Counted from the first letter of the stretch, positions 19,662 through 62,616 are shown. The stretch: 64,000 nucleotides of DNA from Candidatus Beckwithbacteria bacterium (GCA_012797845.1 JAAZOH010000025.1:3767-67766); one strand, 5' to 3'. The notes: generated by a model from the sequence alone, not told the origin. Made by a program: numbers and translations.

Positions 19662-20144
19662 TTACTTTTTAAGATAAACAAAGGTGTTATATCTGTTATA
19701 GATTAATTTGTACTTTAATAGGTTTCTTTTTTTAAATTGTGAAATTAAAATTTGGCATTGATTTACATTTGACTGATTACTCTCAGCTATCACTTTGACT
19801 TGTTGCGGATACAGTTGATATAAAAGATATTTTACTGGCAAATCCCAAGACCAAAAAATACATACTGAATCGCTTTTAGAAATTAAAGTTCCTATATCCT
19901 TAGCTACCAAGTTTTGAGCCATAGTGTCTCTTTCAATTATTTGATCAACCAATGTAGGTTTCATAAAACTTTTTGGCAAATATTGGATTAGAAAATAGAT
20001 ATTTATCCCTATGCCAGCAAGTAAAACTAAAGTAATAATCAAATTTTTTAATCTTGGCAAAATAAAAACACACAACAGGGAAGCAATTAAACTTAAATAA
20101 AAAAAGCCTAAAAAAGTAAAAATCTTTTGAAATAAATAAAACAT
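19662..20144 (-). CDS. Small hypothetical membrane protein (160 aa)
   Basis: ORF with 3 hydrophobic segments, AT-rich, no family recognised. Confidence 0.3.
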   Translation of the reverse strand: MFYLFQKIFTFLGFFYLSLIASLLCVFILPRLKNLIITLVLLAGIGINIYFLIQYLPKSFMKPTLVDQIIERDTMAQNLVAKDIGTLISKSDSVCIFWSWDLPVKYLLYQLYPQQVKVIAESNQSNVNQCQILISQFKKRNLLKYKLIYNRYNTFVYLKK

Positions 20145-44375: not shown

Positions 44376-44419
44376 GACTCTATTCATCTCTCAATATCCT
44401 CGCGTATAATACTTTTACT

Positions 44420-47380: not shown

Positions 47381-47444
47381 CATTGCGATTTTGTAAAATA
47401 ATAAGTTGATTAATTAGACTAGCTACGCTAGTATGTAAGCCTGT

Positions 47445-48383
47445 ATGAAAGATAATTTTTGGCAAAATAAAAGAGTTTTAATTACCGGTGCTCACGGCTT
47501 TTTAGGTAGCCACTTAGTAAGGCAGCTGAAAAAACTAAAACCTAGGCAGTTGCGAATTCCTACTTCTAAAGAACTGGATCTGACTCAAAATCAAAATTGT
47601 ATCAAGGCCGTTGAAAACATTGATCTAGTCATTCATTTAGCAGCCAAGGTTGGCGGCATTGGTTTTAACCAACAATATCCTGGAACTTTGTTTTATGACA
47701 ATTTGGTGATGGGTGCTCATTTGATGGAAGCAGCCCGAAAAGCTGGGGTCAAAAAATTTGTGGCCCTTGGTACCATTTGCGCGTATCCAAAATTTACACC
47801 AATTCCTTTTAAAGAGGAAAATTTGTGGAATGGCTATCCTGAAGAAACCAATGCTCCCTATGGTTTGGCTAAAAAAATGCTGTTAGTTCAAGCTCAGGCC
47901 TATCGTCAACAATACAGCTTTAATGCTATTTTCTTATTACCCGTTAATTTGTATGGCCCTGGTGATAATTTTGATCCCAAATCTTCCCATGTCATTCCAG
48001 CTCTTATAAAAAAATTTATTGATGCTAAAGAAAGTGGCAAAAAAACTGTGACTATTTGGGGAACTGGTAACCCTACTCGGGAATTTTTGTATGTTGAAGA
48101 CGCTGCTAAAGGGATTATTTTGGCCAGTGAAAAATACAACAAAGCTGATCCGGTCAATCTAGGAAGCAGTAATGAGATTTCTATCAGAGCGTTGGTTGAA
48201 CTCATTCAGGAACTAACAGAGTTTAAAGGCCAAATTATTTGGGATAAGACAAAGCCAGACGGTCAGCCTAGACGTAAACTGGATATTTCAAAAGCCAAAA
48301 CTGAGTTTGGCTTTGAGGCTTCTACTGATTTTAAAAAGGGACTTAAAAAAACTATTGAATGGTATCAAAAATATGGTAGATAA
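47445..48383 (+). CDS. fcl: GDP-L-fucose synthase (GDP-4-keto-6-deoxy-D-mannose 3,5-epimerase/4-reductase)
   Basis: [63 protein letters not shown]. Matches E. coli Fcl closely over its length. Confidence 0.8.
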
Positions 48384-49191
48384 AATTACAATAATTAAAC
48401 CTCAACAAGGTTTTATTTCTATAAATTTCAAAGAGCTTTGGAGATATCGGGAACTACTATTAGCCCTAATGATAAGAGACATTAAGGTGCGATATAAACA
48501 AACATACTTAGGGATAGCTTGGGCCATCATGCAACCATTTACTCAGATGGTTGTGTTTAGCTTCTTTTTTGGTAAACTGGCAAAAATTCCTTCGGATGGA
48601 GTTCCTTATCCCATCTTCTCGTATTCTGGATTAATCCTTTGGACTTTTTTTAGCAATAGCATTAGTGCAGTTAGCAATAGCATGATAAACAGCTCTACTA
48701 TTATTAAAAAAGTATATTTTCCTAGGCTTATTTCTCCCATAGCTAGTTCTTTGGTTTATATAGTTGACTATATTATTGCTTTTACTATTTTGATCGGTTT
48801 AATATTTTTTTATAATTTCCCTTTACGCTTAGAATTTTTATTAATTCCCATGGTAGTATTTGGTACTTGGTTACTAAGCATTGGTGTTGGTTGTTTTCTA
48901 GCATCAATAAACATTCGTTATAGAGATGTTCGTTATGCTTTGCCGTTTTTTATTCAACTTCTTTTATACATTACGCCTGTCATTTACCCTGCATCAGTAG
49001 CTGGGCAATTTGAATGGATCGTCAATATAAATCCAATGACTGGATTTATGGAGCTTCATCGTTCTCTAATTTTGGGATTACCCATTAAAATCAATCAAAT
49101 TATAATTTCACTTATAATTACAATAGTCTTTTTAGTAATTGGATTACTGACATTCAAAAAAATGGAAAAAAACATTGTTGATATTGTTTAA
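48373..49191 (+). CDS. wzm: ABC-2 type polysaccharide export permease (Wzm/TagG/KpsM-like)
   Basis: 6-TM ABC-2 permease pattern ([26 protein letters not shown]). Start moved to the ATG at 48373 (MVDKIT), which overlaps the fcl stop. Confidence 0.7.
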
Positions 49192-49193
49192 TT

Positions 49194-50435
49194 ATGAAGA
49201 AGGATTTAGCAATTCAAGTTAGCCAATTAAGCAAAAAGTATTTAATTGATACTTTTCATCATTCGCCTCCTGTTCCCCAAAATACATTATCTATTTTAAA
49301 AACCAATCTTTTTAATAAAAACAAAACTGAGATTTTTTGGGCTTTAAAAAATATTAATTTTAAGATTAAAAAAGGTGAAATTGTTGGTATTGTGGGTGCT
49401 AATGGAGCTGGAAAATCTACGCTTTTAAAGATTTTATCCCAAATAGTGGAGCCTACTTCAGGTGAAGTGAAACTTAGAGGTAAAATTTCTTCCTTGTTAG
49501 AGGTTGGCACTGGATTTAACCCTGAATTAACCGGAAGAGAAAACATATATCTAAATGGTGCCATTTTAGGCATGAGCCGCAAAGAAATTGAGAGAAAGTT
49601 CGATAACATAATTGACTTTAGTGGTGTAAAAAAATTTTTAGATGTGCCGATCAAAAGATATTCATCTGGAATGCAAGTAAGATTAGCTTTTTCTGTAGCA
49701 GCCCACCTTGATTCAGATATTTTACTTATTGATGAAGTGCTTGCAGTCGGAGATGTGGAATTTCAAAAAAAATGTTTAGGAAAAATTGATGATATTTCTA
49801 AAAACGAAAGTCGAACAGTTTTGTTTGTTAGTCACAATATTGGCATAGTTAAAAGATTATGCAATCGAATCATCTTACTAGAAAATGGAAAAGTAAAACT
49901 TGATGGCTCAAGCGACGACGCTATTGAGGAGTATTTCAAAGTAGATCATACTCCCACTGAAGGCAAGATTAATTTAAGTAGCGTTCCTAGAAGAGACAAT
50001 CTGGTAAAAGCTATTACTTCATGTTGGTTTCAGTCTCTTGAAGGGAAAAGTAAAACTGTTTTTGCCATGGGTAAGCCAATGCAGATTTGCTATCATTTCA
50101 AATTAAATAAATCATATCCTGATCTTAATTTTACCTGTATGATTTTTAATATATACGGGGATAGAGTAACTACTTTATCAACCTTTCTTAATCAAAATAA
50201 GGTTTACAACAATATTAAAGAAGGAACAGTAATATTTAACGTCCCTTGTTTGCGATTAACTCCTGGTGCTTACAAAATAAGTTTATACCTTTTAGACAAA
50301 ATTGGTAACTCTATAGATCGTACAGAAATGGCAGCAGAATTTAAAGTGATGCCAAACAATATCTTTTCATCTATATATACGTTTTCATCTGGTCATGGTT
50401 TTCTTTACTTAGATGCTACAATCGATGTGGTATGA
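49194..50435 (+). CDS. wzt: ABC transporter ATP-binding protein Wzt with a C-terminal carbohydrate-binding extension
   Basis: Walker A GANGAGKST, signature SSGMQVRLAF, Walker B ILLIDE. About 170 extra C-terminal residues are predicted beta-rich, as in Wzt proteins that recognise a terminal glycan cap. Confidence 0.75.
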   Translation: MKKDLAIQVSQLSKKYLIDTFHHSPPVPQNTLSILKTNLFNKNKTEIFWALKNINFKIKKGEIVGIVGANGAGKSTLLKILSQIVEPTSGEVKLRGKISSLLEVGTGFNPELTGRENIYLNGAILGMSRKEIERKFDNIIDFSGVKKFLDVPIKRYSSGMQVRLAFSVAAHLDSDILLIDEVLAVGDVEFQKKCLGKIDDISKNESRTVLFVSHNIGIVKRLCNRIILLENGKVKLDGSSDDAIEEYFKVDHTPTEGKINLSSVPRRDNLVKAITSCWFQSLEGKSKTVFAMGKPMQICYHFKLNKSYPDLNFTCMIFNIYGDRVTTLSTFLNQNKVYNNIKEGTVIFNVPCLRLTPGAYKISLYLLDKIGNSIDRTEMAAEFKVMPNNIFSSIYTFSSGHGFLYLDATIDVV

Positions 50436-51529
50436 ATGATACTCATTTAAAATCAATTTTAATCACTGGTGGTACCGGCACCTTTGGCAGATCTTTTGCT
50501 AAAACTGTTTTAGAAAACTATCCCCATATAGAGAAAGTGGTTATCTTTTCCAGAGATGAGTTTAAACAGTTTGAAATGTCAAATCTAGACTGGTGCCAAA
50601 AACATCAAAAACGCTTACGTTTCTTTGTCGGCGACGTTCGTGATAAAGACAGGCTTTTGCGAGCTTTTTCTGGAATTGATGTGGTGGTTCATGCCGCTGC
50701 TCTAAAACAAATCCCTAGCTGTGAATATAATCCATTTGAAGCCATTAAAACTAATGTTTGGGGAGCGCAAAATGTTATCGAAGCCGCATTGGATTGCAAA
50801 GTCAAAAGAGTGGTTGCTCTTAGTACAGATAAAGCCTGTTCACCTATCAACCTTTATGGTGCCACCAAACTATGTAGCGATAAGCTCTTTATTTCAGCTA
50901 ATTCTTATGCAGGTTTACAAGACACAAGATTTGCTGTGGTTCGCTATGGCAATGTAACTGGTAGCCGTGGCTCTCTAATTCCCTTTTTCCAAAAACTTGT
51001 TGAAGCTAAAGCTGACTCTATGCCTATTACCGATGAGCGGATGACCCGTTTTTGGCTCAATATCCATGAAGCGGTAGATTTGGTCTTACTGGCACTAAAC
51101 AATACCTTAGGTGGTGAAATTTTTGTACCTAAAATTCCTTCAGTAAAGATTACTGACATTGCCAAAGCCATTGCTCCTCATATACCCATAAAAATAATTG
51201 GCATTAGACCTGGCGAGAAAATCCATGAAAAGATGATTAGTATTGATGATGCCCGCAATACCATCGAGTTTGACAACTATTTTGTGATTCAACCTGATTT
51301 AAATTTATCTTGGGCTAAAAGAACTAAAGCTGGGCTAAAAGGAACAAAAGTATCACCCGATTTTGAATACCATAGTGGTAATAATACCGACTGGCTAAAT
51401 GTAGATCAAGTCAGAAAATTGATAAAAAAACTAAACCCCGAAAACGCTAATTCTAACAGAAATTTAAACGATAAAGTTACAATGAATAATCCCCAAAACG
51501 TAACTATCAATATTTACGAGTCAAAATAA
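50432..51529 (+). CDS. pseB: UDP-N-acetylglucosamine 4,6-dehydratase (inverting), PseB/FlaA1-like
   Basis: Strong similarity to Cj1293/HP0840 over its length: ILITGGTGTFG, FFVGDVRDKDRL, HAAALKQIP, NPFEAIKTNVWGAQNV, LSTDKACSPINLYGATKL, RYGNVTGSRGSLIPFF, PITDERMTRFW. Confidence 0.85.
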   Translation: MNDTHLKSILITGGTGTFGRSFAKTVLENYPHIEKVVIFSRDEFKQFEMSNLDWCQKHQKRLRFFVGDVRDKDRLLRAFSGIDVVVHAAALKQIPSCEYNPFEAIKTNVWGAQNVIEAALDCKVKRVVALSTDKACSPINLYGATKLCSDKLFISANSYAGLQDTRFAVVRYGNVTGSRGSLIPFFQKLVEAKADSMPITDERMTRFWLNIHEAVDLVLLALNNTLGGEIFVPKIPSVKITDIAKAIAPHIPIKIIGIRPGEKIHEKMISIDDARNTIEFDNYFVIQPDLNLSWAKRTKAGLKGTKVSPDFEYHSGNNTDWLNVDQVRKLIKKLNPENANSNRNLNDKVTMNNPQNVTINIYESK

Positions 51530-51554
51530 AAAATAAAAAATGAAAAGTTGAAGT

Positions 51555-52412
51555 TTAAGCTAACTCTTCTAAAGCTTTGTTAATTATAATAGAATGTGTT
51601 TCCGCTCCAGATAAAATCTCTCCTTTGTCATTGAAACACAATTGCTTAGCTACTTCATATTGTTTACGAGCTTCTTCAGCATTTCCTTGAGCTCCCGCAA
51701 TTCTACCAAGAGATATGTGAGCATTTCGTTGATTATGAACATCTCCAATTTTTTCAAATCCTCCCAGTGCCTTCACTTGATATCCAGTAGCCTGATCATA
51801 ACCTTCAAGTTTTTCATAAGCTACTCCAAGTAGCTGTAGCGTCCTGTTATAGATTGCTTTATTTACCTCATTATCTGGATCTTGCTCAAGGACTGTCTGT
51901 CCATTTTCTAAACCTTTTTTATAGTACTTAATAGCATCTTCAATTCCTACGTCCTCTTGAACCCAAAGGCCAATCTCATTAAAGGCTTTGCTTATTTCGA
52001 TACAGGGTTCAGGAGAAGTAGCTAAAATTTTTTCTATTTCATCAGCCATCCTACGAGATCCAACTATATCTTTGCTAAAGGGATGTGATTTTTGAGGTCT
52101 ATCGCCAGTTCTAAAGAGGTAAAGTAGCCCAGCTTTAGCATTTAATAAAGCTGGAATATTACCTGTTTTTGCAGCATTGTATTCTGCAGCTGCTAGTACC
52201 ATTTCTGCTTCCGCATAATTGGCTTGCATGGTTAGAGCCAATCCTCGTTCTAACATAGGGTAAGGATTACCTACTGAATCATGGGAATAGCATGGAGGAG
52301 TAGAGCTCAAAACTTCTTCATACGCCCCGACTCGATTTAAGCCTGCAAGCTCTGCAATATAGTGGTCTAAAGTAAAGTTTTCTGGAGTAGAAAAAAGTTC
52401 CTTTTTTCCCAT
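51555..52412 (-). CDS. Hypothetical soluble protein (285 aa, helical/TPR-like by composition)
   Basis: The only minus-strand gene in the plus block. Inserted between pseB and pseC, it ends convergently 25 bp from pseB. No family recognised. Confidence 0.35.
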   Translation of the reverse strand: MGKKELFSTPENFTLDHYIAELAGLNRVGAYEEVLSSTPPCYSHDSVGNPYPMLERGLALTMQANYAEAEMVLAAAEYNAAKTGNIPALLNAKAGLLYLFRTGDRPQKSHPFSKDIVGSRRMADEIEKILATSPEPCIEISKAFNEIGLWVQEDVGIEDAIKYYKKGLENGQTVLEQDPDNEVNKAIYNRTLQLLGVAYEKLEGYDQATGYQVKALGGFEKIGDVHNQRNAHISLGRIAGAQGNAEEARKQYEVAKQLCFNDKGEILSGAETHSIIINKALEELA

Positions 52413-52453
52413 ATTACTCTGAATTATAAAATAATTTACAAGAAAAGCAATTT

Positions 52454-53632
52454 TTGAAATATGATATGATCTACCTTGATCATATGAGCCAAAATAAATT
52501 TTCTTACGGTCGACAATCTATTTCCCAGAAAGACATAACTGCAGTTACCAAAGTTTTACAATCAAACTTTCTTACTCAGGGCCCAAGCATTAAAGAGTTT
52601 GAAGAAAAATTTGCCAGTTATTGTGAGACCAGATATGCAGTAGCAGTCTGCAATGGCACTGCTGCTCTTCACCTTGCAGTACTAGCCCTTGAGCTTGATT
52701 CCAGCTCAGAAGCTATCACTTCCCCCATGTCCTTTGCTGCTTCAGCTAATTGCGTTTTGTATGCAAGAGCCAAAATTAACTTTGCTGATATCGATCCATA
52801 CACTGGACTTATAGACCCAGCTGAATTAGCTAAAAAAGTAACCCCCAAAACTAAACTGTTGATTCCGGTCCACTATGCTGGCCAAGCTTGCAATATGGCT
52901 GCAATTGCCAAGCTAGCTAAAAAATACAAGCTCTACATTATTGAAGATGCAGCCCATGCTATTGGCAGCTCATACAAAAATAGGAAGATCGGCTCTTGCC
53001 AGTACAGTGACATGACTACCTTTTCTTTCCATCCCGTTAAAACTATTACTTCAGGTGAGGGCGGCATGATCACCACCAATAATAAAAAACTTTATGAAAA
53101 ACTGCTGATGCTCCGTACTCATGGCATTACCAAGCAAAATTTTGTCAGCAAACCAGATGGGAATTGGTACTACGAAATGCAAGCTTTGGGCTACAATTAC
53201 CGGCTAACCGATATTCAGGCTACTCTCGGACTTTCACAGCTGAGCCAAATCGAGAAGTTTAAAAAAAAGAGGTCAAAATTGGTAAACTTTTACGATAAAG
53301 CCTTTGCAAACGATCCCTGCTTTAAGGTTCTGGGCAAAGCTGCTAATTCTGATACTTGCTATCATCTTTACCCACTACTATTTCAATTTGATAAACTAAA
53401 AATTACAAAGCAACAGCTCTTTAAAGCTTTGCAAAAGAAGGGCTTATTTCTCCAGGTTCACTACATTCCCATCCATCTCCAACCCTACTACCAAAACTTA
53501 GGCTTTAAAAAAGGTGATTTCCCCAATGCTGAGCAATTTTATCAGCAAGAGTTGTCATTACCTCTATATGTTGACCTGACTATTCCTCAAGCCAAACAAG
53601 TTGTCAAAATTATTAAAGAACTAGCTCAATAA
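52454..53632 (+). CDS. pseC: PLP-dependent DegT/DnrJ/EryC1-family sugar aminotransferase, PseC-like
   Basis: About 390 aa with VCNGTAALHLAVLAL and the active-site lysine region FSFHPVKTITSGEGGMI. Position is directly after pseB. Confidence 0.7.
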   Translation: MKYDMIYLDHMSQNKFSYGRQSISQKDITAVTKVLQSNFLTQGPSIKEFEEKFASYCETRYAVAVCNGTAALHLAVLALELDSSSEAITSPMSFAASANCVLYARAKINFADIDPYTGLIDPAELAKKVTPKTKLLIPVHYAGQACNMAAIAKLAKKYKLYIIEDAAHAIGSSYKNRKIGSCQYSDMTTFSFHPVKTITSGEGGMITTNNKKLYEKLLMLRTHGITKQNFVSKPDGNWYYEMQALGYNYRLTDIQATLGLSQLSQIEKFKKKRSKLVNFYDKAFANDPCFKVLGKAANSDTCYHLYPLLFQFDKLKITKQQLFKALQKKGLFLQVHYIPIHLQPYYQNLGFKKGDFPNAEQFYQQELSLPLYVDLTIPQAKQVVKIIKELAQ

Positions 53633-53634
53633 CC

Positions 53635-54408
53635 ATGCACCAGATTGGCTTAAAACTTTGGTCAACCAATGACTTTTATGTAGAGGAGGCACAAAAACTT
53701 TTTAGCAAAAAAGTTTATAACTATATTGAGCTCTATACAGTCCCCGACTCATACGCCAAATTTTATCGAATCTGGCGAAACTTAAATATTCCCTATATCA
53801 TTCATGCTCCTCATTTTACCCATGGAGTTAATTTGGCCTCGAAGATAAACTTTAAAAAAAATATTGAGCTAATAGAAGAGGCTCAGCGTTTTGCCGATAC
53901 CCTAAAGGCAAAATATATCATTGTGCATCCGGGATGTAATGGCGATATCAAAGAAACTGCAAGGCAGCTAGGACAAATTGATGATTCAAGAATTCTAGTA
54001 GAAAATATGCCCTATTTAGGAATCGAAGACGGTATTATCTGTAACGGAAGTACCTATAATGAACTACAGTATGTTCTAAGTCATACTAACAAAGGCTTTT
54101 GTCTGGATATTCATCATGCCTTTAGTTCATCAGCCTATCATAAAATTGATCCCATTTCTTTTGTAAAAAAGTTATTAACGTTAAGACCAAGCATGTTTCA
54201 TTTGGCTGATAGCAAAACGACATATGTTAGAGATAAACATTTAAATATTGGCAAGGGCAATTTGCCAATTAAAGATATAATTAAACTAATACCAAACAAT
54301 AGCTTTATAAGCTTAGAAACAAAAAAGCAAACCATACAAAATCTTAATGTTTTTATTGAAGATGTTTCAATCATCAAAGAACTAGAAAATTATGATCAAA
54401 ATAAATAA
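53635..54408 (+). CDS. Sugar-phosphate isomerase/epimerase-like TIM-barrel protein (xylose isomerase-like fold)
   Basis: HAPHF...IIVHPG...CLDIHHAF...HLAD pattern of AP-endonuclease-2/xylose-isomerase-like TIM barrels. The assignment is weaker than for neighbouring genes. Confidence 0.4.
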   Translation: MHQIGLKLWSTNDFYVEEAQKLFSKKVYNYIELYTVPDSYAKFYRIWRNLNIPYIIHAPHFTHGVNLASKINFKKNIELIEEAQRFADTLKAKYIIVHPGCNGDIKETARQLGQIDDSRILVENMPYLGIEDGIICNGSTYNELQYVLSHTNKGFCLDIHHAFSSSAYHKIDPISFVKKLLTLRPSMFHLADSKTTYVRDKHLNIGKGNLPIKDIIKLIPNNSFISLETKKQTIQNLNVFIEDVSIIKELENYDQNK

Positions 54409-55438
54409 TCGCAAAATTGGAACTGACTACCCTCCTTATATCATCGCCGACCTTTCTGCAAACCATAATCAATCTTTAGATCGGGCATTAGAGATTGTGG
54501 AAAAAAGTCACGAAGCTGGTATTGATGCTTTAAAACTTCAAACATACACTGCCAGTTGTATGACACTAAATGTCAAAAAACCAAATTTTAAAATTTCAAA
54601 CAAAACCAAATTATGGAAAGGTGAATACCTCTACTCCTTATATAAAAAAGCTCCTATTCCATGGGAGTGGCATAAACCAATTATGCAAAAATGTAAAAAA
54701 TTAGGCCTTACTTGCTTTAGTACTCCGTTCAGTGAAAAAGGAGTAGATTTTTTAGAAAACTTGGATGTTCCATGTTATAAGGTTGCGTCTTTTGAAAATA
54801 TCCATATACCTCTACTGAAGAAAATTGCTAAAACAAAAAAGCCAGTTATTATATCTACAGGCATGGCTAATGTAACTGAACTGGGCGAAGCTATACAAAC
54901 GCTTAGGGAAAACGGATGCAGAGATGTAATACTTTTAAAATGTACAAGCACTTACCCTGCTGATGAAAGCGAATCAAACCTTAGAACTATTCCTCATATG
55001 AAAGACTTATTTAGCTGTGAGGTAGGGCTTTCAGATCACACCTTAGGTATTGGCGTTCCTTTGGCTAGTGTGGCTCTAGGTGCAACTGTAATTGAAAAGC
55101 ATATTACCTTGAGAAGAAAGGATGGTGGTTTCGACTCTACTTTTTCCCTAGAGCCAAAAGAAATGAAAAGCTTAGTCATTGAAAGTAGACGGGCTTGGAA
55201 AGCTTTGGGAAAAATCAGCTATGAATCGACAAAAAAAGAACAAGCTAGTTTACAATTCAAAAGATCAATTTATATAGCAAAAGATATGAGAAAAGGTGAA
55301 CAATTTACAAAGAAAAGTCTAAAAGTAATTCGTCCAGGATTTGGTCTAGCACCAAAATATTATGAACATGTTCTAGGTAAAAAAATTTCAAGAAATGTAT
55401 CAAAGGGGACACCTTTAAAATGGGAATATGTAAATTGA
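54392..55438 (+). CDS. pseI: Nonulosonic acid synthase (NeuB family; pseudaminic acid synthase PseI-like) with a C-terminal SAF domain
   Basis: YIIADLSANHNQSL (family IAEIGxNHNG), LKLQTY, and the C-terminal SAF segment KGEQFTKKSLKVIRPGFGL. Confidence 0.75.
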   Translation: MIKINNRKIGTDYPPYIIADLSANHNQSLDRALEIVEKSHEAGIDALKLQTYTASCMTLNVKKPNFKISNKTKLWKGEYLYSLYKKAPIPWEWHKPIMQKCKKLGLTCFSTPFSEKGVDFLENLDVPCYKVASFENIHIPLLKKIAKTKKPVIISTGMANVTELGEAIQTLRENGCRDVILLKCTSTYPADESESNLRTIPHMKDLFSCEVGLSDHTLGIGVPLASVALGATVIEKHITLRRKDGGFDSTFSLEPKEMKSLVIESRRAWKALGKISYESTKKEQASLQFKRSIYIAKDMRKGEQFTKKSLKVIRPGFGLAPKYYEHVLGKKISRNVSKGTPLKWEYVN

Positions 55439-55447
55439 TTAAAATTT

Positions 55448-56356
55448 ATGAATAAACAGAACTTAAACCAAATCAAGAAAATTTACGATCAAGGAGGTAA
55501 TATTATACAGTTTCTAAAAAAAGGAAATTCTTCTCAAGCTAATTCAGATGAAATGGTTTTAATTAGCTATGACTTTCAAAGTGGTTCTTACATAAAATAT
55601 GTACAAAGTAATCCAAAAGAGAAAGACCTCTATACAAAATCAATCGCAGCTGTAATTAACAATCTAAATGTAAAGTACGATTCAATTCTTGAAGCAGGAG
55701 TTGGTGAAGCAACTACTTTAGCAAGTCTTCTGCCTAAATTGAAAGCTAAACCCAAAGACACATATGGCTTTGATATTTCATGGTCAAGAATTAAATATGG
55801 TCAAGAGTATTTGAAAAAGAAAAGATTGTCGAAAGTGTTTTTGTTTGTAGGAGATCTATTCAATATACCAATTGCAGATAATGCAATAGATATTGTCTAT
55901 ACATCTCATTCTATCGAGCCTAATGGAGGCAAGGAAAAAGAAGCCTTAAAAGAACTGTATCGCATTACCAATAAATACCTAATTCTTTTAGAACCTGCCT
56001 ATGAACTTGCAGATAAAAAAGCTAGAGAAAGAATGGAACACCATGGTTATATTAAAAATCTATATTCAACTGCTAAATCCTTGAAATATAATGTTTTAGA
56101 CTACAAGCTATTTGATTACTATATAAACCCTCTTAATCCAACTGGTTTAATGATTATTAAAAAATCTCTACAAAATAAATTAACTAATAGTAAACCATTG
56201 CTCTGTCCTATAAGCAAAACTCCTCTGAGTTTTATAAGAGGTTCTTATTTTTCTAAAAAAGGTCTACTTGCTTACCCTATAATCGATAAGGTTCCTTGTT
56301 TGCTAAACGAAAACGCTGTTATAGCTACTCATTACCTGGACAGATTTACAAAGTAA
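55448..56356 (+). CDS. Probable SAM-dependent methyltransferase
   Basis: ILEAGVGEATTL glycine-rich motif I-like segment, and acidic motif II VFLFVGDLFNIP. Confidence 0.4.
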   Translation: MNKQNLNQIKKIYDQGGNIIQFLKKGNSSQANSDEMVLISYDFQSGSYIKYVQSNPKEKDLYTKSIAAVINNLNVKYDSILEAGVGEATTLASLLPKLKAKPKDTYGFDISWSRIKYGQEYLKKKRLSKVFLFVGDLFNIPIADNAIDIVYTSHSIEPNGGKEKEALKELYRITNKYLILLEPAYELADKKARERMEHHGYIKNLYSTAKSLKYNVLDYKLFDYYINPLNPTGLMIIKKSLQNKLTNSKPLLCPISKTPLSFIRGSYFSKKGLLAYPIIDKVPCLLNENAVIATHYLDRFTK

Positions 56357-56374
56357 TTAGAAAATTTATATTGC

Positions 56375-56902
56375 ATGAAAAAAGTAATTTTTTATGAACA
56401 ATTAGAGTTAAAAAGCTTTGTTGTTTTGACTAAAAATGAAAAACAATTAGTCTATCAATGGAGAAATAACCAAAAAATAAGTAAGTGGATGATTAATCAA
56501 AATAAATTTTCCTATACAGAACATCTTCGATTTATAAAAAAATTAGCAAAGGATAATAATAATTTTCACTGGCTTGTCCAAAACAAAATAGATAAAGAAT
56601 ATCTTGGAGTATGCAATTTAGTTAATATAGATAAAAAACATAAACATTGTTACTTGGGAATATACGTAAATCCTAGTTTGCAAAATAAAGGATATGGAAC
56701 TGACATTCTAAAAGTCTTAAAGCACATTGCTTACAATCTACTTAACATACATACCATAAAATTAGAAGTTTTTGAGCACAATAGCAGAGCCATTAATTTT
56801 TATAAAAAAAATGGTTTCAAAAAAGAAGGTTTACTTAAAGATTACATTTTGATAAACAATAAGTGGCACAACCTTCTTCTCATGGGCCATTTCCCCAAAT
56901 AG
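56375..56902 (+). CDS. pseH: GNAT N-acetyltransferase PseH-like (UDP-4-amino-4,6-dideoxy-AltNAc N-acetyltransferase)
   Basis: Aligns by eye to C. jejuni PseH: QWRNNQKISKWM...EHLRFIKKL versus KWRNHPDINQFM...EHLRFLKKL, and a GNAT core. Confidence 0.7.
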   Translation: MKKVIFYEQLELKSFVVLTKNEKQLVYQWRNNQKISKWMINQNKFSYTEHLRFIKKLAKDNNNFHWLVQNKIDKEYLGVCNLVNIDKKHKHCYLGIYVNPSLQNKGYGTDILKVLKHIAYNLLNIHTIKLEVFEHNSRAINFYKKNGFKKEGLLKDYILINNKWHNLLLMGHFPK

Positions 56903-56904
56903 TT

Positions 56905-57780
56905 ATGAAAGGTGTTCAAAAATTAGCAATTGGTACTGCCAATTTTGGCTTGGACTATGGCATTAACAATGCTAACGGAAAACTTTCCTATATCCAAGTA
57001 GCTCAAATTTTAGATTTAGCTACTAAGTTAAAAATAAATTTTTTGGATACAGCCAGTGCCTATGGAAATAGTGAGCAAGTTTTAGGAAAATACCTCAGTA
57101 AAGCTAAAGCTAAAGATATACGTCTTATTTCAAAAGTCATTGTTGGGAGCCAAATAGATTTGGCTCAAGAATTAAAAAAATCATTGCAAAACTTGCATAA
57201 AAAGAAACTCTTTGGATATTTAATCCATAATTTTCAGGAGTTTAAGAAACATCCTGATATTTTCCAAGAGTTTCTTAGGCTAAAACAGCAAGGATTTGCA
57301 GAAAAAGTTGGCTTTTCTCTGTATTTCCCACAAGATCTTGAATTTTTGATCAAGCATAAAATCCAGTTTGATATTGTTCAGGTTCCGTATAATATTTTCG
57401 ATCAGCGCTTTGAACCATATTTTAAAAAACTAAAAGAAAATAAAGTTGAGATTCACTGCCGTTCCGTATTCCTTCAAGGCCTATTTTTTAAATCTACCAA
57501 AGAACTTAAGCCGCCATTAAATAAAGCTGCAACTAAACTTGAGTTTCTACAAAAAATTACAATACAACAGAAGATACCTCTTCAGACGCTTTGTTTGCAA
57601 TTTGTTGCTCTCAACCCTTTTATTGATAAAATAGTTATTGGTATTGATAGTATCAAGCAATTGCAGGAAAACGCAGATACTTTTATCCAACAAAAAAATG
57701 TGAAATATATATATAAAGAGTTGAAAAAGTTGAAAGTGGAAGATGAGAATATCATTTTGCCCTTCAATTGGAAAAAGTGA
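56905..57780 (+). CDS. Aldo/keto reductase family oxidoreductase
   Basis: LAIGTANFG...LDTASAYGNSEQVLGK is the AKR N-terminal signature. Start set at the ATG 3 nt after the pseH stop. Confidence 0.6.
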   Translation: MKGVQKLAIGTANFGLDYGINNANGKLSYIQVAQILDLATKLKINFLDTASAYGNSEQVLGKYLSKAKAKDIRLISKVIVGSQIDLAQELKKSLQNLHKKKLFGYLIHNFQEFKKHPDIFQEFLRLKQQGFAEKVGFSLYFPQDLEFLIKHKIQFDIVQVPYNIFDQRFEPYFKKLKENKVEIHCRSVFLQGLFFKSTKELKPPLNKAATKLEFLQKITIQQKIPLQTLCLQFVALNPFIDKIVIGIDSIKQLQENADTFIQQKNVKYIYKELKKLKVEDENIILPFNWKK

Positions 57781-58670
57781 AGCAATTAAAATTAGGAATC
57801 ATTGGTCTTAGCGAAGGGAATGGCCACCCTTACTCCTGGTCAGCAATTTTTAATGGCTTTAATAAAGCTGTTATGAAAACTTGTCCTTTTCCGGTTATTT
57901 ACGAATATTTGAGTAAGCAACGTTTTCCTAAAGATGCAATTGCTGGTGCCAAGGTAACCCATATTTGGACCCAAGACCTAAGCATTTCCCGACACATTGC
58001 CAAAGCCTCAAATATTGTAAATATTGTTACTGATTACCAAGATATGATTGGCCAAGTTGACGCTATCTTATTAGCTAGAGACGACTCGCAAAACCATTTG
58101 AAGATGAGCCGCCCTTTCTTGCAAGCCGGCTTACCCATTTACATTGATAAACCTCTGGCCACAACCATTGCTGAGGCTAAAAAAATGTACTCTTTAGAAC
58201 AGTATGCTGGCCAGATATTTACCTGTTCAGCTCTTGCCTATGCCAAAGAACTTACGCTAAGCCCAAAAAAATTGGATAGCTTTGGTCCAATACATTTTGT
58301 CAATGCTATCACTCCTAAGTACTGGGAAACCTACGCTGTTCATATTATTGAGCCAACTCTTAATCTTTTTAAAACTAAGACTAAACATATAAAATCAGCT
58401 TCAACCCATAAGTCAAAACAAATCACTACCACAAGCATTATTTGGGATTCTGGCTTAATAACCAACTTCAGTGCATTGGGTCAAAGTGCTACTCCAATCA
58501 AAATTGAGATCTATGGACAAAATAAATCTGAGGTGTTAGTCTTTAAAGATACTTTTTTTGCTTTTAAAAAAGCTTTGGAAGAATTTATTGCTATTATTAC
58601 TAAAAAAAAGAAACCTCAAAAAAAAGAAGACGTTTTGCATTTAATTTCAATAATTGAACAAGGGCTTTAA
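57768..58670 (+). CDS. Gfo/Idh/MocA-family NAD(P)-dependent oxidoreductase (PtmF-like position)
   Basis: LKLGIIGLSEGNGHPYSW is the Rossmann N-terminus typical of Gfo/Idh/MocA enzymes. Confidence 0.6.
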   Translation: MEKVKQLKLGIIGLSEGNGHPYSWSAIFNGFNKAVMKTCPFPVIYEYLSKQRFPKDAIAGAKVTHIWTQDLSISRHIAKASNIVNIVTDYQDMIGQVDAILLARDDSQNHLKMSRPFLQAGLPIYIDKPLATTIAEAKKMYSLEQYAGQIFTCSALAYAKELTLSPKKLDSFGPIHFVNAITPKYWETYAVHIIEPTLNLFKTKTKHIKSASTHKSKQITTTSIIWDSGLITNFSALGQSATPIKIEIYGQNKSEVLVFKDTFFAFKKALEEFIAIITKKKKPQKKEDVLHLISIIEQGL

Positions 58671-58671
58671 C

Positions 58672-59427
58672 ATGAAAAAAACTATTTTAATCACTGGTGG
58701 TACAGGCAAAATTGGCCAGGTCTTAACAAAGCATTTTTTAAAAAAGGACTACAAGGTAATCATTACTAGTAGAAATGAACAGCAGGCCTTAAAGCTTTTT
58801 GCTAACAGTAAAAATATACCAAATCTCAGCGTTATCGAGATTGACTTAAGAGCAGATAAAGCTATCAACCATGTGATCAGCTCTCTCGAAAAACTAAATG
58901 CAAAACCTTATGCTCTTATTCACTGTGCCCGAAATTTAGAAAGCCTCAAGTACTCACCGGACTTAGAAACTAGGATCAAAAATTGGCAAGCTGAGTATTT
59001 ACTGGATGTAGTTATACCCTATGAACTTTCACTGGCAGTTGCCAAAATGAAGGAATCGAAATTAACAAATGTGGTTACCATCTCTTCAATGTATGGTGTG
59101 GTTGCGGCCAATCCTCATCTTTATACTAATCCACAAATTCAGTCTCCTGTGCAATATAGTGTAGCCAAGGCTGCTCTTATCCATGCCACCAAAGAAATGG
59201 CCATAAGATTAAGTCCACAGAAAATAAAGGTTAACTGCATATCTTATGGAGGTATTGAGGGAAGGGCTGATGAGGATTTTAAAAAGAGATATGGAAAACT
59301 TTGCCCTATTGGTAGAATGCTTACTGAAGAGGAAATTATTAAGCCAGTTGAATTTCTGATTTCTAATAGCTCCACTGCTATGCAAGGCCATAATTTGATT
59401 GTAGATGGGGGCTGGTCTATATGGTAA
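58672..59427 (+). CDS. Short-chain dehydrogenase/reductase (SDR), PtmA-like
   Basis: TILITGGTGKIGQ glycine motif, and YSVAKAAL catalytic YxxxK. Confidence 0.7.
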   Translation: MKKTILITGGTGKIGQVLTKHFLKKDYKVIITSRNEQQALKLFANSKNIPNLSVIEIDLRADKAINHVISSLEKLNAKPYALIHCARNLESLKYSPDLETRIKNWQAEYLLDVVIPYELSLAVAKMKESKLTNVVTISSMYGVVAANPHLYTNPQIQSPVQYSVAKAALIHATKEMAIRLSPQKIKVNCISYGGIEGRADEDFKKRYGKLCPIGRMLTEEEIIKPVEFLISNSSTAMQGHNLIVDGGWSIW

Positions 59428-60107
59428 GCAAAGTAGCTATTATCCCTGCCAGAAAAGGCTCGAAACGAATTCCTCTAAAAAACATAGTCAACTTTCATGG
59501 TAAGCCTCTCATAGCCTGGACCATAGGAGCAGCATTAAAATCAAAAGTGTTTGATGCTGTTTATGTTAGTACTGATAGTCAGAAAATCGCTAACATAAGC
59601 GAAAAATATGGAGCTAAGGTCCCTTTCCTACGTACAAAATATACAGATGATAACTCTTCGGTAAGCAGTGTGATTATTGACTTTTTGGAAAATTTAAAAA
59701 AGAAAAAAAGCAAGGAATTTGATGTAGTTTTTTCCCTAATGCCCAATTGCCCGCTTAGAACTGGCCAAGATATCATACGAGCCGATAAAAATTGTACTGC
59801 CAAAAAGGCTAGTTTTCAACTCAGCTGTTTTGAATTTGGATTTATGAATCCATGGTGGGCATTTACTCTAGATAAAAACTGCAGACCAGAGTATATTCAT
59901 AAAAGCGCTCTTAAAAAACGATCTCAGGATTTATCTAAATTATTTTGTCCCAGCGGTGCTATTTGGATTGCAAATATTAAAGCTTTGCAAAAAAGCAAAA
60001 CCTTCTATGGCCCCAATCATATTTTTTATAAATTGGGTTGGAAGAATGCAATTGATATCGATAGTAAAGAGGATTTAGAACTAGCTAAAAGCTTCTCAAA
60101 AAATTAA
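59421..60107 (+). CDS. pseF: CMP-nonulosonic acid synthetase (acylneuraminate cytidylyltransferase family; PseF/NeuA-like)
   Basis: VAIIPARKGSKRIPLKN N-terminal signature of CMP-sugar cytidylyltransferases. Confidence 0.7.
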   Translation: MVSKVAIIPARKGSKRIPLKNIVNFHGKPLIAWTIGAALKSKVFDAVYVSTDSQKIANISEKYGAKVPFLRTKYTDDNSSVSSVIIDFLENLKKKKSKEFDVVFSLMPNCPLRTGQDIIRADKNCTAKKASFQLSCFEFGFMNPWWAFTLDKNCRPEYIHKSALKKRSQDLSKLFCPSGAIWIANIKALQKSKTFYGPNHIFYKLGWKNAIDIDSKEDLELAKSFSKN

Positions 60108-60108
60108 T

Positions 60109-60984
60109 ATGTTTTCTTTTAATAGTAAGTATCTCTCAAAACAATCAGCTAATATTTTATTTCTTTATTTAAAAAGTTTTTTAAATAAAGAATATACTTT
60201 TTCGAGCGAGGACCTTTTTACTCAACTACACCAACTATATTGGCAAACACCTAAAGTGGAAGTTATTAAAAAAGATAAAAATCTTCAACTACTAAAGGTT
60301 AAAAAACTGAAATTCTACTGGCCAACAAATATTCCCTTACAAGGCCTGGAATGGATTTATAATGAAGTATTTTATCCATATAAAAAAAATCCTGCTTCTT
60401 ACGATCACCCCTTATTTGATTTTAAAAAAGTAAACTGGGTCATAGATGCTGGTGCAAGTGAGGGTTTTTATACAAATTTTGCCTTTAAAAACAAAGCTAA
60501 AAAAGTAATAGCTATTGAACCCCTTTTAATTTTAAAAGAAAGCTTGCAACAGACTTTTAAAAAGGAGGTAAAAAAAAGACAGCTCGAAATTATTTCTAAA
60601 AGCTTGGGAAGAAAAAAAGGAAAGGCATATTTGAAATTTGAAAATAATTGTCTATATAACTCGAGTGTCGATGATAAAAAAGATAAAAATTATCAGAAAA
60701 CAAAAATTACTACTATTGATTCAGTTGTAAAAACAAATAAATTAAAGGGTAAGGGGATTATAAAAATGGATATAGAAGGTGGGGAAATAGATGCCCTAAA
60801 AGGTGCAGTCGATTGTTTACAGAGGAATAAACCTAAATTAGCTATAGCTGTATATCATAATCAACAAAACTACCACAAGTGCAAGGAAGTGATTTTCAAG
60901 GCTAACCGCAACTATCGGATTGAAGCTAGAGGAATGTATTGCTGGAAAACTCCGCCTAGACCTTTTATGTTATTTGCCTATTAA
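60109..60984 (+). CDS. FkbM-family methyltransferase
   Basis: VIDAGASEGFYT...IKMDIEGGEIDALKGA, the FkbM/Methyltransf_21 signature. Confidence 0.65.
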   Translation: MFSFNSKYLSKQSANILFLYLKSFLNKEYTFSSEDLFTQLHQLYWQTPKVEVIKKDKNLQLLKVKKLKFYWPTNIPLQGLEWIYNEVFYPYKKNPASYDHPLFDFKKVNWVIDAGASEGFYTNFAFKNKAKKVIAIEPLLILKESLQQTFKKEVKKRQLEIISKSLGRKKGKAYLKFENNCLYNSSVDDKKDKNYQKTKITTIDSVVKTNKLKGKGIIKMDIEGGEIDALKGAVDCLQRNKPKLAIAVYHNQQNYHKCKEVIFKANRNYRIEARGMYCWKTPPRPFMLFAY

Positions 60985-60993
60985 AATAAAAAT

Positions 60994-62613
60994 ATGCCTA
61001 TCAACAAATTTTCTCATATTTTTACTGATTTTAGTAAAAACCGGCAAAAAAATAATGCATTACTACCTTTAATAAAGGATGCAAATACAAAATATTTAAA
61101 AAATAAAAATGGTTTAAAAATACTTTTTGGTCCAAGCTTTCCTTTTGGTGAAAATTTTATATATCATGATTTACTCCTTGCTTTACTACTACACTCTCAG
61201 GGTTGCGAAATTTATTATGCTGGGGGAATTATCAATAATATCTCCCCTTCTATCTATTTAGGCGGCCAATGGTCATCAGGAAATAAGAAGACTGACTTTA
61301 AAAAAATTAAATATGGAGAATTAAAAGCTTTAAACGATTTCAAGAAACTGGGAAAGACTTATGACATGAAAAAGTACCTAAGTAAAACTGAGATAAATAA
61401 GTTAAAAGTGAATTTAGCAAAAATAAAATTTGAAGATTTGCTCAAATACAAGTTTGAAAACATAGACCTGGGGCATGATGCTATGAATAAAGTTAGAAAT
61501 CATCATCTTGTTAGTAGCATAGATCTAGTAAAAAATAAAAGGAACTTGGTTAGAGAGGCTCTTTTGAATTGCAATATGTATGAAATCTTCTTTAGAAAAA
61601 TAATTGAAGAATTAAAACCTGATAGGATTATTTCTCACGATTCCTTTTATTACCCCTGGTCAGTCCTTAGAAAAATTGCCGATTTGAAGAATATTAATTA
61701 TTACAATTATTATTTTGGTTTTAAAAAGGATGAATATATCTATGCAAACAATAAACCAGCAATGTCATTAAATACAACACCTATGTGGAAAAAAGTTAAG
61801 TCTGTACCTCTTCAAGAAAGTCAGATTAAAAAAATTGACAAAACACTTAAAAAAAGAATAAATGGCGATGTAGGCCGCTTAGGTCTTGTCAGATATTCCA
61901 ACAGTAAAGAGGTGGAAAAAATTATTAAATTTGCAAAACAAAAACCTACAGCGGTTCTATATGGCAACGTATGCTGGGATTTAAATGCACTTGACAAAGA
62001 ACTCTTTTTTAAGTCAATTAAAGAAGGTTATTTTAAAACTATTGAATATTTTCTTCAACATAAAAACTATCAACTAATCATTAAGTCTCATCCAGCAGAA
62101 GAGCATCCAAAGATCCCCATTACTGTCGAAAGCTTGGAAAGCATGATAAAAAAGAAGTATGGTTTGTTGCCAAAAAACATTATCTTGCTTCCCCCAAAAA
62201 CAGCAATAACTGCTTATGACCTATTTCCTATTACTAATGTAAGCGTAGTCTGGACAAGTACCGCAGGCATAGAAAGCGTAATTTATAATACCCCAACTAT
62301 TACTATAGCTAATACCCATTTTCGCAATAAGAATTTTACCTTAGATCCAGCTTCTCAAAAAGAATATTATTCCATTTTAGAAAAAGTGTTAATAAAAAAA
62401 ATGCATTTAGCTAAAAAAACGAAATATTTAGCATATAAATATTTTTACTATTATTTAAATTGCTTTAGCTATAACTATGGTATTCCAACGCAAAACTGGA
62501 CAGAAGCATTAAGCGAGGATCATAAAAATAAAGTCAATCACTTTTTTGAAAATAAGCGGCTAAAATATATAGTTGGCACTATTGTAAATGGTAAAAAAAT
62601 CGAATTAGTATAA
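60994..62613 (+). CDS. Putative KpsS/KpsC (Capsule_synth)-like GT-B protein, candidate ulosonic/nonulosonic acid transferase
   Basis: C-terminal LIIKSHPAEEHP...VVWTSTAGIESVIYNTPTITIA resembles the conserved HP motif and GT-B C-lobe of Capsule_synth family proteins. Confidence 0.3.
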   Translation: MPINKFSHIFTDFSKNRQKNNALLPLIKDANTKYLKNKNGLKILFGPSFPFGENFIYHDLLLALLLHSQGCEIYYAGGIINNISPSIYLGGQWSSGNKKTDFKKIKYGELKALNDFKKLGKTYDMKKYLSKTEINKLKVNLAKIKFEDLLKYKFENIDLGHDAMNKVRNHHLVSSIDLVKNKRNLVREALLNCNMYEIFFRKIIEELKPDRIISHDSFYYPWSVLRKIADLKNINYYNYYFGFKKDEYIYANNKPAMSLNTTPMWKKVKSVPLQESQIKKIDKTLKKRINGDVGRLGLVRYSNSKEVEKIIKFAKQKPTAVLYGNVCWDLNALDKELFFKSIKEGYFKTIEYFLQHKNYQLIIKSHPAEEHPKIPITVESLESMIKKKYGLLPKNIILLPPKTAITAYDLFPITNVSVVWTSTAGIESVIYNTPTITIANTHFRNKNFTLDPASQKEYYSILEKVLIKKMHLAKKTKYLAYKYFYYYLNCFSYNYGIPTQNWTEALSEDHKNKVNHFFENKRLKYIVGTIVNGKKIELV

Positions 62614-62616
62614 ATT

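Follow-up and report, generated by a model that had tools for sequence, protein, structure and literature searches.

This analysis concerns a surface-glycan locus on a 64,000-nucleotide (nt) stretch of DNA, called the window throughout, from Candidatus Beckwithbacteria (GCA_012797845.1, JAAZOH010000025.1:3767-67766), which belongs to the Candidate Phyla Radiation (CPR). Genes were assigned by scanning the window's proteins against the Pfam and NCBIfam profiles, and the features are collected in Table 1. Positions 44420-63840 hold a densely packed plus-strand array with intergenic spacing of -77 to +64 nt. The sole exception is a 924-nt gap, which contains a gene on the opposite strand (51555-52412). 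A Wzm/Wzt exporter, a pathway of the pseudaminic acid (Pse) type, an FkbM methyltransferase and a 539-aa protein with a GT-B glycosyltransferase (GT) fold all lie within 48373-63840. The best explanation of this gene content is an ATP-binding cassette (ABC) transporter-dependent surface-glycan locus of a CPR bacterium. The host presumably has no outer membrane, in which case the product would be a wall-, lipid- or protein-linked glycan and not a lipopolysaccharide (LPS) O-antigen. An earlier note on this DNA had framed the locus as a chain-termination system of the O-antigen type, and this framing needs to change because the host is a CPR bacterium.

Exporter, sugar pathway and candidate transferase

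The mechanical open reading frame (ORF) call for wzm is 48307-49191, starting from a TTG; an ATG is found at 48373, where the earlier note had placed the start. In Wzt, the Wzt_C profile (PF14524) matched residues 274-391 with 51 bits (cut-off 30.4), and residues 35-366 matched the full-length Wzt of Aquifex aeolicus (8dku/7k2t) in a phmmer search (E 3.5e-70). The AlphaFold2 (AF2) model of Wzt was built with 40 homologues in the input and had a mean pLDDT of 81. Its top Foldseek matches were the full-length A. aeolicus WzmWzt chains (E 4e-36, ~404 columns, 34% identity). The extension past the nucleotide-binding domain had been put at ~170 residues and was found to be ~165. The profile match, the all-beta model and the Foldseek match identify it as a Wzt_C beta-sandwich, in line with the earlier suggestion of a fold like that of carbohydrate-binding modules. 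When this carbohydrate-binding domain (CBD) was searched alone, no significant match to any solved chain was found among the PDB sequences, where hits were at chance level, and a word-indexed protein search returned no homologues. Because its sequence is so divergent, no ligand can be inferred from the solved CBDs.

Synthesis of a CMP-activated nonulosonic acid, also proposed in the earlier note, was confirmed and is specifically of the pseudaminic acid type. Four of the six pathway enzymes (PseB, PseC, PseH and PseI) scored above their NCBIfam equivalog cut-offs. The three oxidoreductases encoded at 56863..59427 probably modify or epimerise the nonulosonate. No other CMP-sugar pathway lies near the gene for the 539-aa protein, and the library scans detected no Kdo (3-deoxy-D-manno-octulosonate) genes and no KpsMT or KpsED in the window. 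A gene for a TIM-barrel protein (53635-54408) sits between pseC and pseI, at the expected site of a pseG; none of the other loci examined contains a homologue of it.

The gene at 60109..60984 encodes an FkbM methyltransferase, as predicted, with both family profiles above threshold. The 539-aa protein encoded 3' of it is annotated at NCBI as hypothetical protein GYA49_03595. Alone, it had no Pfam or NCBIfam match at the default threshold, and its Capsule_synth (PF05159) score of 15.7 bits, with an E of 0.011, falls short of the cut-off of 20. A word-indexed search yielded 14 relatives, five of which carry precomputed Capsule_synth matches. Scanned singly, 12 of the 14 matched this family at E<=1 (best E 3.3e-10), and fused relatives scored 21-34 bits. 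The family profile also matched the KpsC of Thermosulfurimonas (6mgd, E 0.011), aligning 'GNVxWDLxAL' with 'GQVESDAS' and 'IIKSHPAEE' with 'VYKPHPD'. In KpsC, the Asp of an invariant QxxxD is the covalent nucleophile of a double displacement, and an HP motif follows ~35 residues on (PMC10148158). Residues N325-V-C-W-D329 of the 539-aa protein align with GQVESD of KpsC through this weak profile match to 6mgd (E 0.011); the hhalign alignment to E. coli KpsC stops short of them. Across 14 sequences, neither D329 nor H366-P367 varies, and the D-HP spacing is 37 residues. W328, G425 and E427 are also invariant. KpsC and KpsS of E. coli were taken for comparison from a genuine plasmid-borne kps cluster (L036). 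In hhalign, the probability was 47% with KpsC (E 2e-4) and 73% with KpsS (E 3e-5), in both cases over ~100-115 columns from the HP motif to 'YRxKGFT'.

The AF2 model of the 539-aa protein shows a GT-B fold (pLDDT 85, pTM 0.83). In Foldseek, KpsC (8fux, 6mgb, 6mgc, 6mgd) and WbbB (8csb, 5fa1) ranked among the top matches and gave the best target-side TM-scores (TMt), 0.44-0.54, compared to a TM-score of ~0.33 for UDP-GlcNAc 2-epimerases. The protein thus belongs, as a distant relative, to the superfamily of retaining ulosonic-acid transferases that holds KpsC, KpsS and WbbB. The earlier note had tentatively called it a Capsule_synth-like GT-B protein and proposed a search for remote homology to GT107 and GT99. 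Family, fold and HP motif support the assignment, although the protein's own Capsule_synth score is below threshold; distant matches to KpsC and KpsS were found, but no sequence match to WbbB.

Membership in GT107 or GT99 was not borne out, and two further assignments were considered and rejected. The sub-threshold Capsule_synth score makes the protein a distant superfamily relative and not a member of GT107. For GT99, no WbbB chain appeared in the PDB sequence or profile searches, and the likeness is structural only (TMt 0.40-0.47). A Kdo transferase does not fit a locus with no Kdo pathway and a gene consistently linked to NeuB and cytidylyltransferase genes. Finally, the protein has no domain of the Maf-type or TagB-type nonulosonate transferases, and the enzymes of Tannerella forsythia belong to a different family.

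Table 1. Features of the window and of the sequence just past its end (positions count from the first letter of the window unless a locus is named; bits are profile scores)
Feature	Position	Strand	Evidence or comment
Wzm, ABC-2 permease	48373..49191	+	PF01061 ABC2_membrane 60.9 bits; Galactan_ABC_perm 73 bits
Wzt ATPase with C-terminal CBD, 413 aa	49194..50435	+	ABC_tran, residues 51-182 (87.7 bits), and Wzt_C
Wzt_C beta-sandwich domain, residues ~259-413	49968..50435	+	AF2: all-beta, pLDDT ~90, last strand 409-412
PseB, UDP-GlcNAc 4,6-dehydratase (inverting)	50432..51529	+	TIGR03589, 500.6 bits (cut-off 407.75)
PseC aminotransferase	52454..53632	+	TIGR03588, 506 bits (cut-off 423.5)
Xylose-isomerase-like TIM-barrel protein	53635..54408	+	PF01261 (AP_endonuc_2), 59.8 bits
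PseI, pseudaminic acid synthase	54392..55438	+	TIGR03586, 495 bits (cut-off 340)
Class I S-adenosylmethionine (SAM) methyltransferase	55448..56356	+	Methyltransf_25/11; possible nonulosonate modification
PseH N-acetyltransferase	56375..56902	+	TIGR03585, 140 bits (cut-off 93.1)
Aldo-keto reductase	56863-57780	+	Profile scans
Gfo/Idh/MocA oxidoreductase	57768-58670	+	Profile scans
PtmA-like short-chain dehydrogenase/reductase (SDR)	58654-59427	+	Profile scans
CMP-nonulosonate synthetase, PseF-like	59421..60107	+	CTP_transf_3 90 bits; TIGR03584 185.9 bits, just under cut-off of 205.7
FkbM-family SAM methyltransferase, 291 aa	60109..60984	+	PF05050 54.8 bits (threshold 22.7); TIGR01444 71.1 bits (threshold 37.7)
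539-aa GT-B protein, predicted CMP-nonulosonate transferase	60994..62613	+	Family, fold, motifs
GT4 glycosyltransferase	62617..63840	+	Glyco_trans_1_4, 69.8 bits; directly 3' of the 539-aa GT gene
Nucleotide-sugar dehydrogenase	L001:12849-14153, just past window end		TIGR03026, 398 bits
329-aa protein, no assigned function	44420..45409	+	First gene of array; 11-nt overlap with next gene
LPG_synthase_TM-family membrane protein	45399..46370	+	PF03706, 159 bits
Acyl_transf_3 membrane acyltransferase, probable glycan O-acetylase	46367..47380	+	PF01757, 74.7 bits
GDP-L-fucose-synthase-like epimerase/reductase	47445..48383	+	PF01370, 196 bits; immediately 5' of wzm
Tetratricopeptide repeat (TPR) protein, 285 aa	51555..52412	-	TPR_12, 36.3 bits; breaks up plus-strand array
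Separate Wzx/Wzy-type glycan cluster	1840-29782	-	Includes five GT4 and five GT2 genes
DUF4012 protein, 859 aa	1840-4419	-	Wzx/Wzy-type cluster
Bac_transf initiating transferase	4413-5033	-	Wzx/Wzy-type cluster
Wzy_C ligase/polymerase-like protein	12319-13932	-	Wzx/Wzy-type cluster
Wzx	23540-24796	-	Wzx/Wzy-type cluster
PMT_2 paralogues	10835-12316, 21283-22722, 28169-29782, 31033-32499, 32549-34063, 34035-35633, 41193-42797, 42801-44375		

A widespread transferase family and its gene neighbourhoods

An exhaustive profile search of 1.84 billion representative proteins matched 8980 proteins at E<=1e-3 and 2181 at E<=1e-30, the latter each representing a cluster. Scanning one genome per species with an alignment of 10 family sequences yielded 22 loci with ~27-33% identity. 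Among the taxa with the gene are Thermodesulfobacteriota, Nitrospiraceae, Hydrogenedentota, Anaerolineae, Chromatiaceae, Vibrio hepatarius, Geobacter, Cyanobacteriota, Cloacimonas, TM6, Lachnospiraceae, Bdellovibrionota and the archaeon Methanospirillum lacunae. The family has no Pfam or NCBIfam model, and its members are named 'hypothetical protein' wherever source names exist (NCBI, JGI, RefSeq). This includes the RefSeq homologue in Legionella adelaidensis, which adjoins an acylneuraminate cytidylyltransferase.

The ORFs of 29 non-redundant loci were searched with the window's proteins to survey the gene neighbourhoods. The window's own locus is labelled L001. FkbM is directly beside the GT or fused to it in 25 of the 29 loci (fused in three). 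A NeuB-type synthase or cytidylyltransferase is in view of the GT in 24, across many phyla, and a GT4 lies within 3 kb in 19. Most loci that lack one of these are cut by contig ends. A Wzt is encoded near the module in seven loci and in the window, and a hidden Markov model of the C-terminal columns of the Wzt alignment found a CBD in all eight. The order Wzm-Wzt(CBD)-FkbM-GT-GT4 occurs with no intervening gene in L018 (Chromatiaceae) and L019 (Anaerolineae), and L002 has the order Wzt-FkbM-GT-GT4.

The nonulosonate pathway varies among the loci. It is legionaminic-like in L002, L004 and L005, with genes for a PglD-type acetyltransferase and a PtmE-like NTP-transferase, and pseudaminic-like in the window and L027. 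In L027, an orthologue (245 bits) of the class I methyltransferase gene at 55448..56356 lies 3' of a NeuB-like gene. The block of aldo-keto reductase (AKR), Gfo/Idh/MocA, SDR and cytidylyltransferase genes in the window (56863-60107) recurs in the same order in L027 (2963-6208) and L029 (6513-9769), which belong to a Proteobacteria metagenome-assembled genome and a TM6 genome. This conservation suggests a defined nonulosonate-modification module.

Pfam scans of the long family members revealed several fusion layouts: GT-FkbM, TPR-GT-FkbM, GT-GT2, TPR-GT-FkbM-GT4 (1334 aa; P0144/L024) and TPR-GT-FkbM-radical SAM-GT2 (1583 aa). A 1908-aa fusion, GT(87-530)-TPR-GT2-GT2-GT4, has the layout of WbbB, in which an N-terminal Kdo transferase ends the chain built by C-terminal polymerising GTs (PMC11231755). 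By the Rosetta-stone argument, these fusions show that GT, FkbM and GT4 work on one and the same glycan.

Several further observations were made at individual loci. The stretches L005 7497-15283 and L008 1144-9317 share 86% identity in Wzx, 71% in FkbM, 89% in a cupin and 91% in a methyltransferase, compared to only 30% in their KpsS-like proteins, and the GT that follows is replaced. This is a serotype-like cassette swap centred on the GT, which suggests that the GT sets a variable terminal linkage. A trio of genes for a ~140-aa WbuC-like cupin, a DegT-type aminotransferase and a ~255-aa class I methyltransferase recurs 3' of the GT/GT4 genes in L004 (14610-16957), L005 (14097-16420), L014 (13200-15724), L024 (11610-13890) and L029 (15042-17408), and in part in L008 (8131-9317) and L001 (14172-15509). 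Its recurrence is a hint that the glycan also contains a conserved amino-deoxy sugar. On the Methanospirillum lacunae Ki8-1 chromosome (L014; 1473849-1495354), the KpsS-like gene is followed by GT4, cupin and DegT genes, and the 10 kb around it yielded no FkbM and no NeuB. L024 (17291-19147) and L021 (3-2807 and 14485-21234) encode a TPR+GT41 protein laid out like FlmG, together with giant TPR/GT2/methyltransferase proteins that reach 2249 aa. In the deltaproteobacterial and Geobacter lineages with TPR-GT-FkbM fusions, the module may act on a protein-linked glycan.

A candidate nonulosonate cap and its alternatives

The earlier note had proposed that a nonulosonate cap is added by the KpsS-like enzyme and read by the CBD of Wzt. 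The parts of this proposal were confirmed, and the GT is linked to FkbM, nonulosonate genes and GT4 across phyla, with a CBD on every linked Wzt; the cap role itself is inferred, and there is counter-evidence. No single model does better than a (methyl-)nonulosonate cap, which is nevertheless unproven and to which we give a probability of roughly 40%. In this model, PseB, PseC, PseH and PseI, the three oxidoreductases, the class I methyltransferase and the PseF-like synthetase would make a CMP-activated Pse derivative. The 539-aa enzyme would transfer it, on the cytoplasmic face, to the non-reducing end of a lipid-linked glycan, probably onto a (uronic-acid) residue set by the adjacent GT4. 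FkbM, the obligate partner, would then O-methylate the new terminus. The methylated nonulosonate would offer the polymerising enzymes no hydroxyl, growth would halt, and the beta-sandwich of Wzt would recognise the capped end for export through Wzm/Wzt. The donor sugar, the substrate of FkbM, the terminal position of the sugar and the ligand of the CBD are thus ones that we infer.

The GT/FkbM pair is most economically read as a 'terminal methyl-nonulosonate' module of general use, since loci with a Wzx flippase employ it as well. Nonulosonates are normally terminal in glycans. The sugar is taken as terminal for this reason, and since methylation takes one of its few free hydroxyls. In ABC-type loci a residue that blocks extension would be a terminator. 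CBD-bearing Wzt proteins export capped chains only, and a CBD in every such locus fits a capped system (PMC9445017, PMC11231755).

A number of findings weigh against the cap model. A Wzx-type flippase is encoded directly 5' of FkbM-GT in L005/L006 and in L008, the latter with the closest homologue of the 539-aa GT (49% identity). The GT gene of L015 has one directly 5' of it and that of L007 has one close by, giving at least four Wzx loci overall. Because it stands beside Wzx there, the module is not a chain-length terminator in those loci and is not bound to one export route. The minus-strand Wzx/Wzy cluster of the window could itself be the true consumer of the nonulosonate. In the window, wzt and the GT gene are 10.5 kb apart with an opposite-strand gene in between, and the plus-strand array has no initiating transferase. 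The Q of QxxxD is an N in the family of the 539-aa protein. Known cap terminators sit in proteins with a coiled-coil molecular ruler (PMC11231755). No long coiled coil was found here: the 539-aa model has only a 35-residue N-terminal helix, and none was identified in FkbM. PseG was not detected anywhere in the window by library scans; with PseG missing and three oxidoreductases added, the final sugar is probably a derivative of Pse, and the extra AKR, Gfo and SDR genes, along with a methyltransferase gene, point to a modified sugar.

The CBD comparisons point the same way. The window CBD has no similarity to the seven other module-linked CBDs (phmmer E>10). Its best matches were P0015 (66 bits), P0017 (64), P0025 (60), P0018 (52), P0026 (46) and P0052 (43). 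The P0015 contig was too short for a neighbourhood view, and the other five loci were looked up. No nonulosonate genes were in view at these five, on contigs of 5-18 kb, and methyltransferases adjoin Wzt in two of them (P0017 and P0018), P0018 also having a sulfotransferase. Because the contigs are this short, the five loci argue only weakly against a nonulosonate ligand.

We consider it unlikely that the nonulosonate is instead part of the chain, with the KpsS-like enzyme and GT4 alternating as a two-enzyme polymerase of a [nonulosonate-uronic acid]n chain and FkbM methylation of the last residue serving as the terminator read by the CBD. The plus-strand array shows just two cytoplasmic GT genes, and GT, GT4 and the nucleotide-sugar dehydrogenase form a conserved block in L001, L002 and L008. 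The 1334-aa fusion of P0144/L024, with GT, FkbM and GT4 in one chain, looks like a bifunctional polymerase plus terminator. The GlcA-Pse K-antigens of Sinorhizobium are a precedent. Another is the polylegionaminic O-chain of Legionella pneumophila Sg1, a legionaminic-acid homopolymer exported by Wzm/Wzt (PMC3766260), and every methyl cap known so far has a CBD as its reader (PMC9445017). However, FkbM also accompanies the GT in Wzx loci, which have no need of a terminator. The ABC-type loci L002 and L004 hold several more GTs, so that the GT-GT4 pair need not be a polymerase, and there is no sign of processivity.

A neutral 6-deoxyhexose/hexose chain is improbable to a similar degree. Here, as happens in E. 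coli O8 and A. aeolicus, the CBD would read an O-methyl group on the last residue, and the nonulosonate would be internal, a side branch or an adaptor with no role in export. Such a chain would suit the GDP-fucose-synthase-like gene directly 5' of wzm, the GDP-mannose-dehydratase-like gene at 38829-39803 and the several methyltransferases in the locus. The A. aeolicus CBD binds 3-O-methyl-mannose (PMC9445017), and the five nearest-CBD loci, with the Wzt-adjoining methyltransferases of P0017 and P0018, are also in line with it, but their contigs are too short for the absence of nonulosonate genes to count for much. Against it, several phyla have FkbM fused to a nonulosonate-type GT, which links methylation to the product or acceptor of that GT, and all eight module-linked Wzt proteins carry a CBD.

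Less probable still is co-location without coupling, in which the nonulosonate/FkbM/GT module would decorate a different product, which could be the repeat unit of the minus-strand Wzx/Wzy cluster or a pilin or S-layer protein glycan, and Wzm/Wzt would export an unrelated polymer. The window does hold a complete Wzx/Wzy-type cluster and an opposite-strand gene between the wzt and GT units, Wzx flanks the closest GT homologue (L008), and the TPR fusions and the TPR+GT41 neighbour in L024 recall the protein-directed FlmG (PMC7591256). This is hard to square with the contiguous Wzm-Wzt(CBD)-FkbM-GT-GT4 order recurring in unrelated phyla (L018 and L019), Wzt-FkbM-GT in L002 and the 4-nt overlap of pseB and wzt in the window. 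Last, the enzyme might build a nonulosonate linker on a lipid, on which the polymer is then grown, as its superfamily members KpsS and KpsC make a beta-Kdo linker on phosphatidylglycerol (PMC12887879); the N-terminal helix could bind a membrane and the array has no initiating phosphoglycosyltransferase, but the transporter is a CBD-bearing Wzm/Wzt and not KpsMT, ties to FkbM and to Wzx loci are unexpected for a primer, and fusions laid out like WbbB favour action at the non-reducing end, making this role very improbable.

For the cap model, a broader proposal can be made that is possible but more tentative than the cap in this locus. The 539-aa protein would found a new and very widespread GT family (its clusters at 50% identity number in the thousands and come from bacteria and one or more archaea) of CMP-Pse and CMP-legionaminic acid (Leg) transferases. 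With their obligate and often fused FkbM partner, these would make an O-methyl-nonulosonate terminus, a third class of cap read by Wzt CBDs after methyl/methylphosphate and Kdo, here in a CPR bacterium presumably lacking an outer membrane. A limited literature search, which does not prove absence, turned up no case of a Wzt CBD that reads a nonulosonate cap. The cap-and-export logic and the enzyme superfamily are already known; what is new is the uncharacterised GT family, its obligate FkbM partner and the CPR setting.

Relation to known systems and other features of the window

The characterised caps are methyl, methylphosphate, beta-Kdo added by GT99 and alpha-Kdo added by GT137 (PMC9445017, PMC11231755). 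WbbB (GT99; Klebsiella pneumoniae O12 and Raoultella terrigena) is, like the predicted transferase, a GT-B enzyme for a CMP-ulosonic acid with an HP motif; it also has an Asp nucleophile motif, for which D329 is the candidate counterpart here. The Wzm/Wzt exporter of the same systems has a CBD that reads the terminal residue, as the window CBD might by analogy. The WbbB structures (8csb, 5fa1) are among the best matches of the 539-aa model, and the fusions of the family with a spacer, two GT2 domains and a GT4 share its layout. In contrast, there is no sequence-level match, and the window pathway is Pse-type rather than Kdo. The fusions have TPR repeats as their spacer in place of a coiled coil, and the window protein has neither. 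The family also has an obligate FkbM and occurs with Wzx, and the CPR host presumably has no LPS.

KpsC and KpsS (GT107, Capsule_synth; group 2 capsules) share the GT-B fold. In the C-terminal CMP-binding region, 'IKSHPAEE' aligns with 'IKHHPMD' and 'VKVHPD', and 'YRxKGFT' with 'YDIKGLT'. In the 6mgd profile alignment, the candidate nucleophile Asp is in register with the QxxxD of KpsC (PMC10148158). The homology is distant only (15.7 bits against a cut-off of 20; hhalign 47-73%), however, and the protein has N for Q, a length of ~540 aa and a different N-terminal half. The window also has neither Kdo genes nor the KpsMT/KpsED export machinery. Within the KpsS superfamily, KpsS1 (GT118) of Acinetobacter baumannii is a retaining Pse5Ac7Ac transferase reported to be 30% identical to E. 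coli KpsS and gives a precedent for the predicted CMP-pseudaminic acid donor (PMC12887879, citing Walklett et al. 2024). By hhalign, the window family is far more distant from KpsS than this. KpsS1 acts on a Wzx/Wzy capsule repeat unit (PMC12887879) and has no reported FkbM partner.

The methyl- and methylphosphate-capped ABC systems (WbdD of E. coli O8/O9a; 3-O-methyl-Man/Rha in A. aeolicus) also have a CBD-bearing Wzt, that of A. aeolicus being the closest solved structure to the window Wzt, and encode a SAM methyltransferase with the terminator function. The window methyltransferase differs in being of the FkbM type and tied to a GT rather than to a kinase/coiled-coil protein, and the window CBD alone has no significant sequence match to any solved CBD. 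In Tannerella forsythia, the Pse/Leg transferases Tanf_01245 and TFUB4_00887 add a terminal nonulosonate to an N-acetylmannosaminuronic acid (ManNAcA) residue, and in strain UB4 the Leg genes are separated from the transferase gene by a methyltransferase gene (PMC5420450). These enzymes are TagB-like proteins of 442-445 aa from another family that serve general protein O-glycosylation.

Transferases for pseudaminic and legionaminic acids are poorly known. To our knowledge, each recent ulosonic-acid GT family (GT99, GT107, GT118, GT137 and GT140) was derived from a single pathogen system. The unnamed family described here is a concrete candidate for a major missing nonulosonate transferase, tied to nonulosonate genes and FkbM in many phyla, and it may also represent a new way of marking chain ends as ready for export where glycans are assembled by the ABC-dependent route. 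In addition, the locus offers one of the few ways into the surface chemistry of CPR cells, and cultured carriers of related loci (Vibrio hepatarius E3R11, which has the module beside a Wzx, and Methanospirillum lacunae Ki8-1) bring the question within experimental reach.

Of the remaining genes in the array, the one for the 329-aa protein at 44420..45409 had no match in Pfam or NCBIfam. The gene at 47445..48383 scored 303 bits with the NCBIfam model GDPFucSynFcl, under its equivalog cut-off of 500. The window lies on a metagenomic contig of 70,369 bp, and past the window end the array continues with the nucleotide-sugar dehydrogenase and then a methyltransferase and a WbuC-like cupin. A promoter and terminator scan of 44000-53000 found fewer sites than in shuffled sequences and says nothing on transcription units. 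Kinship between the TPR protein (51555-52412) and the TPR domains fused to KpsS-like proteins was dropped since there is no sequence similarity. Within the minus-strand cluster, three consecutive ORFs (447, 429 and 160 aa; 17024-20144) had no Pfam match, and this stretch has the lowest G+C of the window (0.283 at 18001-20000). The window also holds eight paralogues of PMT_2-type GT-C membrane glycosyltransferases, a striking density for a small CPR genome, which implies extensive extracytoplasmic glycosylation.

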